12,133 nucleotides of DNA, taken from IMG/VR virus record IMGVR_UViG_2703718828_000006; one strand, 5' to 3'. This document shows, piece after piece, positions 4,478 to 4,497 of this stretch. Position 1 is the stretch's first letter. Every line of letters starts with the position of its first letter. The notes under the pieces are model-generated. The model was not told where the DNA came from, did no database searches, and saw only the letters and a list, made by a program, of their open reading frames with translations. The position numbers and the translations under genes were made by a program. Origin of the DNA: a virus (Duplodnaviria > Heunggongvirae > Uroviricota > Caudoviricetes).

Positions 4478-4497
4478 TTGTGTCGTGACTGACACAA
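4478..4497 (-). promoter_or_regulatory. Perfect dyad TTGTGTC-N6-GACACAA (TGT-N12-ACA); candidate Ogr/Delta-dependent late promoter for the psu-delta operon
   Basis: 7-bp arms are exact reverse complements. Shares 13 of 14 arm positions with the dyad at 249..268. Centre is about 103 nt upstream of the ATG at 4384. Confidence 0.55.

Follow-up and report, generated by a model that had tools for sequence, protein, structure and literature searches.

Organisation of the satellite element

We analysed a stretch of DNA of 12,133 nt (the window), which is one complete integrated P4-like satellite prophage in the tRNA gene leuX (Table 1). All components of the core set of P4-like satellites are present: an integrase (recognised by its open reading frame and its position), an AlpA-like gene, a primase gene, genes for Sid-like and Delta-like proteins, a cos-like sequence, and integration at a tRNA gene. 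The start of the delta gene overlaps the stop of the sid gene, so the two belong to the same operon, and a downstream operon in which sid is followed by delta is common to P4 and the window. In other respects the two elements differ. The primase of the window is of the DUF927/Toprim type and not of the P4 alpha type, the order of the modules is different, and there is no recognisable psu or epsilon gene, whereas psu is present in P4. The sid operon of the window lies downstream of the primase gene and is co-oriented with it, whereas that of P4 is divergent from PLL. The cos-like sequence, which reads GGTGCATGAAAACC...GAAGCGGGCAGGCGGGCGGGGCTGTGCACG on the minus strand, is located downstream of the delta gene, much as the cos site of P4 is downstream of psu.

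Table 1. Features of the 12,133-nt window, in order of position; the two genes listed without a position are given by strand.
Feature	Position	Strand	Basis or remark
att repeat	36-57 vs 11928-11950		copy of the leuX 3' end
Dyad of the portal promoter	249-268	+	predicted -55.5 activator site of the portal late promoter
Predicted -10 hexamer TATCGT	302-307	+	predicted start ~314; read from the sequence
Second exact TGT-N12-ACA, TGTGCTGTTCATTACACA	308-325	+	58 bp downstream of dyad 249-268, around +3 of the predicted start
P2-family portal (gpQ) gene, 341 aa	363-1388	+	Pfam PF04860 and TIGR01540
Intrinsic terminator-like hairpin	1395-1410	+	directly after the portal gene
AT-rich cargo ORF, 558 aa	1416-3092	-	
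cos-like sequence	3164-3258	-	aligns to the P2 and P4 cos regions
Ogr/Delta zinc-finger gene, 90 aa	3411-3683	-	Pfam PF04606, E 1e-16
Sid-like gene, 253 aa	3683-4444	-	Pfam PF07455
Shine-Dalgarno AGGAG	4450-4454	-	5 nt before ATG 4444
Predicted -10 hexamer CACAAT	4477-4482	-	predicted transcription start ~4470
Proximal site (the dyad first reported)	4478-4497	-	about -17.5; ACA arm within the -10 hexamer
Distal TGT-N12-ACA site, TGTGCCAGCCACCACACA	4517-4534	-	predicted Ogr/Delta activator site, -55.5 from the predicted start
Six iterons GGTG(A/G)AACAGG	4622-4810	both	between primase stop and sid promoter
Toprim/DUF927 primase	4845-7517	-	
AlpA-like gene		-	
DUF5375 gene		-	
Integrase-sized ORF	10501-11832	-	ORF list and position beside the tRNA gene
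tRNA-Leu(CAA) gene (leuX)	11928-12012		

Repeated sequences occur at several places in the element. The iterons between the primase gene and the sid promoter are present in six copies, as against 0.35 expected, and are probably the equivalent of ori or crr. Their sequence is unlike the TGTTCACC repeats of P4, but their position is alike: the ori repeats of P4 lie just upstream of Psid, and the iterons of the window likewise lie just upstream of the sid promoter. Upstream of the alpA-like gene, two adjoining 10-bp tandem arrays occupy positions 9717-9797 (4.5 copies of ATTACACTGT and 3.6 copies of CCCCTTATAG); for comparison, the alpA homologue of P4, orf88, is preceded by three 10-bp 'ori type 2' repeats. 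Both att sites are flanked by TATGCCCC(C/T) repeats, at 106-129 and 11767-11813, which are probably arm-type binding sites for the integrase. The AT-rich cargo ORF matched nothing in Pfam or NCBIfam, and its PADLOC match to DitB is weak (1e-4). Relatives of the element carry either a DUF4062 gene or a gene for a 120-aa hypothetical protein at this position, and because its content varies among them we regard it as the variable (defence) hotspot of the satellite.

Two near-identical dyads upstream of the sid and portal genes

A preliminary description of this DNA had drawn attention to two near-identical dyads, and we found their sequences to be exactly as described. The dyad at 249-268 reads TTGTATCGAATTTGACACAA, which is TTGTATC-N6-GACACAA on the plus strand, and the sequence at 4478-4497 reads TTGTGTCGTGACTGACACAA, which on the minus strand forms the dyad TTGTGTC-N6-GACACAA, a perfect palindrome with 7-bp arms. 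The two agree at 13 of their 14 arm positions. When up to two mismatches to TTGTRTC-N6-GACACAA are allowed, they are the only two matches in the 12,133 nt, where 0.14 would be expected, and none of 200 shuffled sequences reached the same number of matches.

Both dyads also contain the signature TGT-N12-ACA, as had been stated, and a pattern scan located exact copies of it at 250-267, 308-325, 4479-4496 and 4517-4534, the second and the last of which were missing from the preliminary description. The 319 nt of promoter region thus hold four exact copies where 0.07 would be expected (Poisson P ~1e-6, calculated post hoc), although the exact signature is a loose criterion, because none of the four annotated activator sites of phage P2 matches it. 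These P2 sites (NC_001895, L016 in our set) are single and imperfect, reading TGT-N12-CCA or TGT-N12-CAA; exact TGT-N12-ACA is found five times in P2, each time outside the activator sites, and this number is below the count expected by chance.

The late promoters of P2 (PP/PO, PV and PF) drive morphogenesis genes, have no usable -35 element, and carry an inverted repeat whose centre is 55-58 bp before the transcription start. Inverted repeats at about -55 serve as binding sites for Ogr, which depends on the alpha subunit of RNA polymerase (PMC3152322), and a consensus for the -55 repeats has been given (PMC3931495). The left half of the P2 PO site has exactly the sequence of the half-site TTGTGTC in our dyads. 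A scan with the sigma-70 consensus found no promoter within 1 kb of either dyad, the nearest being at 2085-2113; this counts as negative evidence only. Both dyads precede genes of morphogenesis type, and the satellite encodes an Ogr/Delta protein of its own. Shared late regulation, as the preliminary description proposed, is the best reading of these data, and the sequence comparisons support the assignment of both dyads as Ogr/Delta-type late-promoter elements.

The predicted sid promoter has the two-site layout of P4 Psid

Reading along the minus strand towards the Sid-like gene, we found the site TGTGCCAGCCACCACACA (4534-4517), 20 nt of intervening sequence, the site TGTGTCAGTCACGACACA (4496-4479), then ATTGACGTA, a leader of 16 nt, AGGAG, another 5 nt, and ATG 4444. 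The distal and proximal sites are 38 bp apart. If CACAAT (4482-4477) is taken as the -10 hexamer and transcription as starting 7 nt downstream of it, the start falls at ~4470, which puts the distal site at -55.5 and the dyad reported initially at -17.5.

The P4 promoter Psid is arranged in the same way. Its two TGT-N12-ACA sites (9493-9510 and 9531-9548) are also 38 bp apart, the ACA of its proximal site lies within a CACAAT -10 hexamer, and the centre of that site is 43.5 nt before the sid ATG, exactly as in the window, so that P4 9531-9548 holds the same position as window 4478-4497. The window therefore has what characterises a promoter of the Psid type: just upstream of a sid homologue, two sites spaced by about 38 bp, of which the proximal site overlaps the -10 hexamer. 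The comparison with P4 was made by position and by protein, because we found no DNA-level homology between region 3300-4900 and P4 or any other phage record. The proximal site of the window is a perfect palindrome, whereas in P4 only its TGT and ACA are symmetric. The distal site resembles the PP/PO site of a P2-like Klebsiella phage.

This layout is conserved among relatives of the element. Each of the 19 related loci found in genomes, E. coli among them, has two sites, and so has each of the 58 found in viral contigs, which comprise 45 distinct upstream sequences and whose Sid-like proteins have as little as 44% identity; several of the related loci duplicate one another, being drawn from the same contigs. 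The two sites are 39 bp apart in seven loci and 38 bp apart in the others. Among the related loci, 76 of 76 have CACAAT at the proximal site, as does P4. Wherever a start codon could be located it lies 36-40 nt after the start of this hexamer (38 nt in both the window and P4), and it is preceded in most loci by CAGGAG or CAGGAA and in two clades by AGGTG or CGGAG. A gapless alignment of 75 nt from 12 diverged promoters has 20 invariant columns, and 17 of these comprise the two TGT triplets, the distal CACA and the proximal CACAATT. Symmetric covariation between the arms of the proximal dyad is limited to one pair (T/A to C/G), which probably represents one event and is no better than seen in shuffles. 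Further upstream, at 4571-4586, there is a motif CTGGCTGGC that is kept in all the relatives and in P4 (as TTTTCCTGGCTTGCC); in loci of the Pantoea/Mixta type (L009 and L012) it occupies the loop of a hairpin that resembles a terminator (GACCTTTTCC...GAAGAAGGTC, then T5) and abuts the distal TGT.

By its position and conservation, the dyad at 4478-4497 reads as the promoter-proximal second site of a P4-Psid-type two-site promoter and not as its -55 site, a role for which 4517-4534 is the predicted candidate. That the two-site layout is conserved across very diverged P4-like satellites argues that the proximal site is functionally important. We also considered whether the dyad could serve a divergent promoter on the plus strand (start ~4542), and rejected this as there is no gene on that strand.

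Start codon and identity of the Sid-like protein

In the preliminary description the gene downstream of this promoter was thought to encode a Psu-like protein beginning at ATG 4384, on the argument that a -55-type site at 4478-4497 would place the transcription start downstream of ATG 4444. This argument is void because the -55 site would be the distal site and not 4478-4497. ATG 4384 is the codon for Met21 of the 253-aa protein, a residue that is Leu or another amino acid in all 17 aligned homologues, and two residues upstream of it, P14 and A20, are invariant. The alignment to P4 Sid begins at residue 12 of the window protein, and the orthologues in E. coli are annotated by RefSeq with 253 aa. 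There is no ribosome-binding site before position 4384. The conserved AGGAG 5 nt before ATG 4444, the conservation of the N-terminus and the variability of Met21 refute a start at 4384, and comparison with homologues places the start of the Sid-like gene at ATG 4444, as normally annotated.

The preliminary description had also placed the two dyads at the same distance from the genes that follow them. Its arithmetic is right (103.5 nt from the centre of 4478-4497 to ATG 4384, and 104.5 nt from the centre of 249-268 to ATG 363), but ATG 4384 is internal to the gene, and the true distance from the centre of 4478-4497 to the start codon, ATG 4444, is 43.5 nt. The match between 103.5 and 104.5 nt is a coincidence that arises from the choice of the internal ATG.

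As for the identity of the protein, P4 Sid matches it over its full length (25% identity, E = 6e-14), whereas the match to P4 Psu is only partial (E = 2e-5) and a Psu protein would be expected to have ~190 aa. Judged by sequence similarity, the product of 3683-4444 is Sid-like (a member of the capsid size determination, or external scaffold, family) and not Psu-like. Its match to the Pfam Psu model (PF07455) is accounted for by the homology between Sid and Psu (PMC8628076).

A portal gene of helper-phage type and its predicted promoter

The gene described at first as portal-like proved to be a full-length member of the P2 portal family. Over residues 20-340 its product has 92.5% amino acid identity to the portal protein of a P2-like Yersinia phage; to P2-type portals the identity is 61%. 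The first ~19 codons of the gene, and the DNA upstream of them, are unique: they encode a novel N-terminal stretch of ~19 aa that is acidic (MDNQDKISDREVTATAEPQSS), whereas phage portals are basic there. Our searches found no phage DNA homologous to the upstream region (200-430), so no sequenced phage was the source of this promoter. The portal gene of P2-like phages stands behind the terminase gene and has no promoter of its own–gene Q of P2 is transcribed from PP, behind gene P–whereas the gene in the window has its own dyad and leader.

Between satellite copies the dN/dS ratio of the portal gene is 0.07-0.10 at a dS of ~0.5, which indicates purifying selection, and the gene accompanies the satellite core at two or more different chromosomal flanks, dsdC (L019) and a leuX-type att remnant (L017 and L018). 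Of 5,426 complete E. coli genomes, only 13 have the region upstream of the gene; a wider query of 5 kb, covering the sid, delta and primase genes, had matches in 1,543 E. coli genomes. We take the portal gene to have been captured from a helper-type phage.

The dyad at 249-268 is conserved in these copies, even though synonymous divergence in the adjacent gene is ~0.5. Its 21 nt are unchanged in 12 of 14 other copies and have one substitution each in the remaining two (L036 and L066); the 29 nt just downstream of the dyad vary at many positions. The spacing between the dyad and the hexamer TATCGT is constant in all copies, with no indel. Because the metagenome copies were fetched with a pattern covering positions 299-318, conservation over that interval is biased, but TATCGT is invariant in six copies that were found independently of the hexamer, and the TGT and ACA of the site at 308-325 are kept in all the independently found copies. 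Most matches in the metagenome pattern scan were due to chance, and true homologues made up 5 of its 45 loci and 3 of its 4 viral-contig hits. Where elements differ in their left flanks, their homology extends only ~5 nt leftward beyond the dyad, which fits the dyad being the most upstream element of a portal promoter module.

If TATCGT is taken as the -10 hexamer, transcription of the portal gene would start at ~314 and the dyad centre would lie at -55.5, as in P2 PV and PO, which is also the value derived independently for the distal site of the sid promoter. In P2 the annotated site centres are 55 (PO), 56 (PP), 55.5 (PV) and 57-59 (PF) nt upstream of the start, and both the portal dyad and the sid distal site fit this range. 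The preliminary description had assigned both dyads to the -55 position. For 249-268 this agrees with an independently identified -10 hexamer; the other dyad, 4478-4497, lies at about -17.5, and it is 4517-4534 that shares the -55.5 position with 249-268, as measured from the -10-like hexamers of the two predicted starts. By its geometry, the portal dyad would therefore correspond to 4517-4534, though in sequence its arms are closest to those of 4478-4497. Its -55 role is less secure than the assignments at the sid promoter, because this dyad also ends in CACAAT (264-269, with the T conserved). A leftward promoter reading across the att site toward int after excision (minus-strand TACAAT, 253-248) was considered and rejected; its last base is A, G or C in relatives and it has no -55 partner.

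Alternative interpretations of the dyads

The palindrome at 4478-4497 is the best in its region, and this, together with the similar distances of the two dyads from ATG 4384 and ATG 363, is what favours the original proposal of a -55 site there, with a transcription start at ~4432 and a protein starting at ATG 4384. We consider this proposal to be hardly credible. In addition to the properties of the N-terminus, the ribosome-binding site and the orthologues described above, it is contradicted by the lack of a -10-like hexamer at 4439-4445, by the conserved second site that stands exactly 38 bp upstream, as in P4 Psid, and by the CACAAT shared by all the related loci at the proximal site. The same perfect symmetry, and a position downstream of the co-oriented primase gene and by the iterons, where read-through transcription is possible, could also suggest that the dyads form RNA or DNA hairpins that act as terminators, processing signals or replication signals, or that they are operators for another protein of the element such as AlpA, primase or integrase. 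We think any of these roles very unlikely. The RNA folds are no more stable than those of shuffled controls (z = -0.06 to -1.3) and none has a T-run after it. In relatives, moreover, only the TGT and ACA at their fixed N12 spacing are invariant and the inner arms are often non-complementary, which is the signature of recognition by a protein and not of a stem. The iterons have a different sequence (GGTGRAACAGG), and the sites are exactly where the activator sites of P4 and P2 stand.

For the portal promoter, two other arrangements were considered. The dyad 249-268 could be a proximal site of the -18 type, with its CACAAT (264-269) serving as the -10 hexamer of a promoter that starts at ~276 and has no -55 site; or 308-325 could be the proximal site of a promoter that starts at ~334, with the dyad acting from about -76. 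Consistent with such arrangements, the arms of 249-268 are closer to those of the proximal sid dyad (13/14) than to the distal site, the T269 that completes CACAAT is conserved in all copies whereas its symmetric partner at 248 is not, and 308-325 is itself a conserved second TGT-N12-ACA. However, there is no TGT-N12-ACA 38 bp upstream of 249-268, and the sequence upstream is unrelated where the left flank differs, which would leave a promoter at 264-269 with no conserved site for an activator. The hexamer that overlaps 308-325 (TACACA or CACACC) lacks the conserved final T, and TATCGT at 302-307 yields exactly the -55.5 arrangement seen at P2 PV, at P2 PO and at the distal site of the sid promoter. 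We regard both arrangements as unlikely, and favour a -55.5 role for 249-268. Overall, we think it probable that the dyads are pairs of Ogr/Delta operator half-sites with different positional roles, 4517-4534 and 249-268 acting at -55.5 and 4478-4497 as a proximal site. This reading is founded on the sequences with their statistics and conservation, on a geometry that P4 and P2 have in common with the window, and on the identities of the genes; from these we infer the transcription starts, the binding, the timing and the role of the proximal site.

The activator and a proposed mechanism

A putative cognate zinc-finger activator of the Ogr/Delta family is encoded by the element itself. It has a single domain with a Cys4 motif (C5-X2-C8...C30-X4-C35) and a C-terminal tail of ~40 aa, and its score falls below the NCBIfam equivalog cut-off for Ogr (58.8 vs 116 bits). 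In P4, Delta is a tandem of two Ogr-like domains and has 166 aa, whereas the window protein has one domain and 90 aa. In this it is like P2 Ogr, PSP3 Pag and phiR73 Delta, which are also single-domain proteins; the window activator is likewise a small single-domain Cys4 protein that matches Pfam Ogr_Delta. P4 Delta reportedly footprints a site near -18 in Psid.

We propose that an activator–the 90-aa Delta-like protein of the element, the Ogr protein of a P2-like helper, or both–would act at the two -55.5 sites, bringing RNA polymerase to a pair of promoters that have no -35 element. When bound at 4517-4534 it would contact the alpha subunit of RNA polymerase, as is known for Ogr. Transcription of the sid-delta operon would start at ~4470, with translation from ATG 4444, and the portal gene would form a single-gene transcript that starts at ~314 and runs to the terminator (1395-1410). 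In this way the sid-delta operon and the portal gene would be switched on together with the late genes of the helper, and because delta lies within the sid operon, activation could be self-reinforcing. The proximal dyad, which overlaps the -10 hexamer, would be an obvious place for modulation or feedback. Most likely it modulates the promoter, either as an auxiliary site or by feedback through its occupancy by Delta made from the same operon.

Significance of the promoters and the portal gene

Both predicted promoters belong to a known class, the late promoters of P2 and P4, and the conservation of the two-site organisation of Psid is a useful but incremental result. The P4 Psid layout, in which a -55 site is combined with a site overlapping the -10 hexamer 38 bp away, holds across very diverged P4-like satellites, and the proximal site has been little studied. 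The analysis also shows that a re-annotation which had seemed plausible is wrong, and that the start giving 253 aa should be kept for the Sid-like gene.

The unusual part of this element is its portal gene, because P4-type satellites have been described as lacking structural genes (PMC9122126). We suggest, tentatively, that a rare sub-lineage of P4-like satellites may have captured a complete P2-family portal gene, exchanged its basic N-terminal 19 residues for an acidic segment, and wired it to an Ogr/Delta-responsive late promoter of its own that shares its half-sites with the sid operator. Should the product of this gene enter helper procapsids or block their portal vertex, that would be the first case of a P4-type satellite using a virion structural gene. 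This would amount to a new layer of capsid hijacking or of interference with the helper, switched on by the helper's own late activator. A portal gene that is carried by a satellite and is under apparent late control is a concrete lead on how the assembly of helper capsids may be manipulated.
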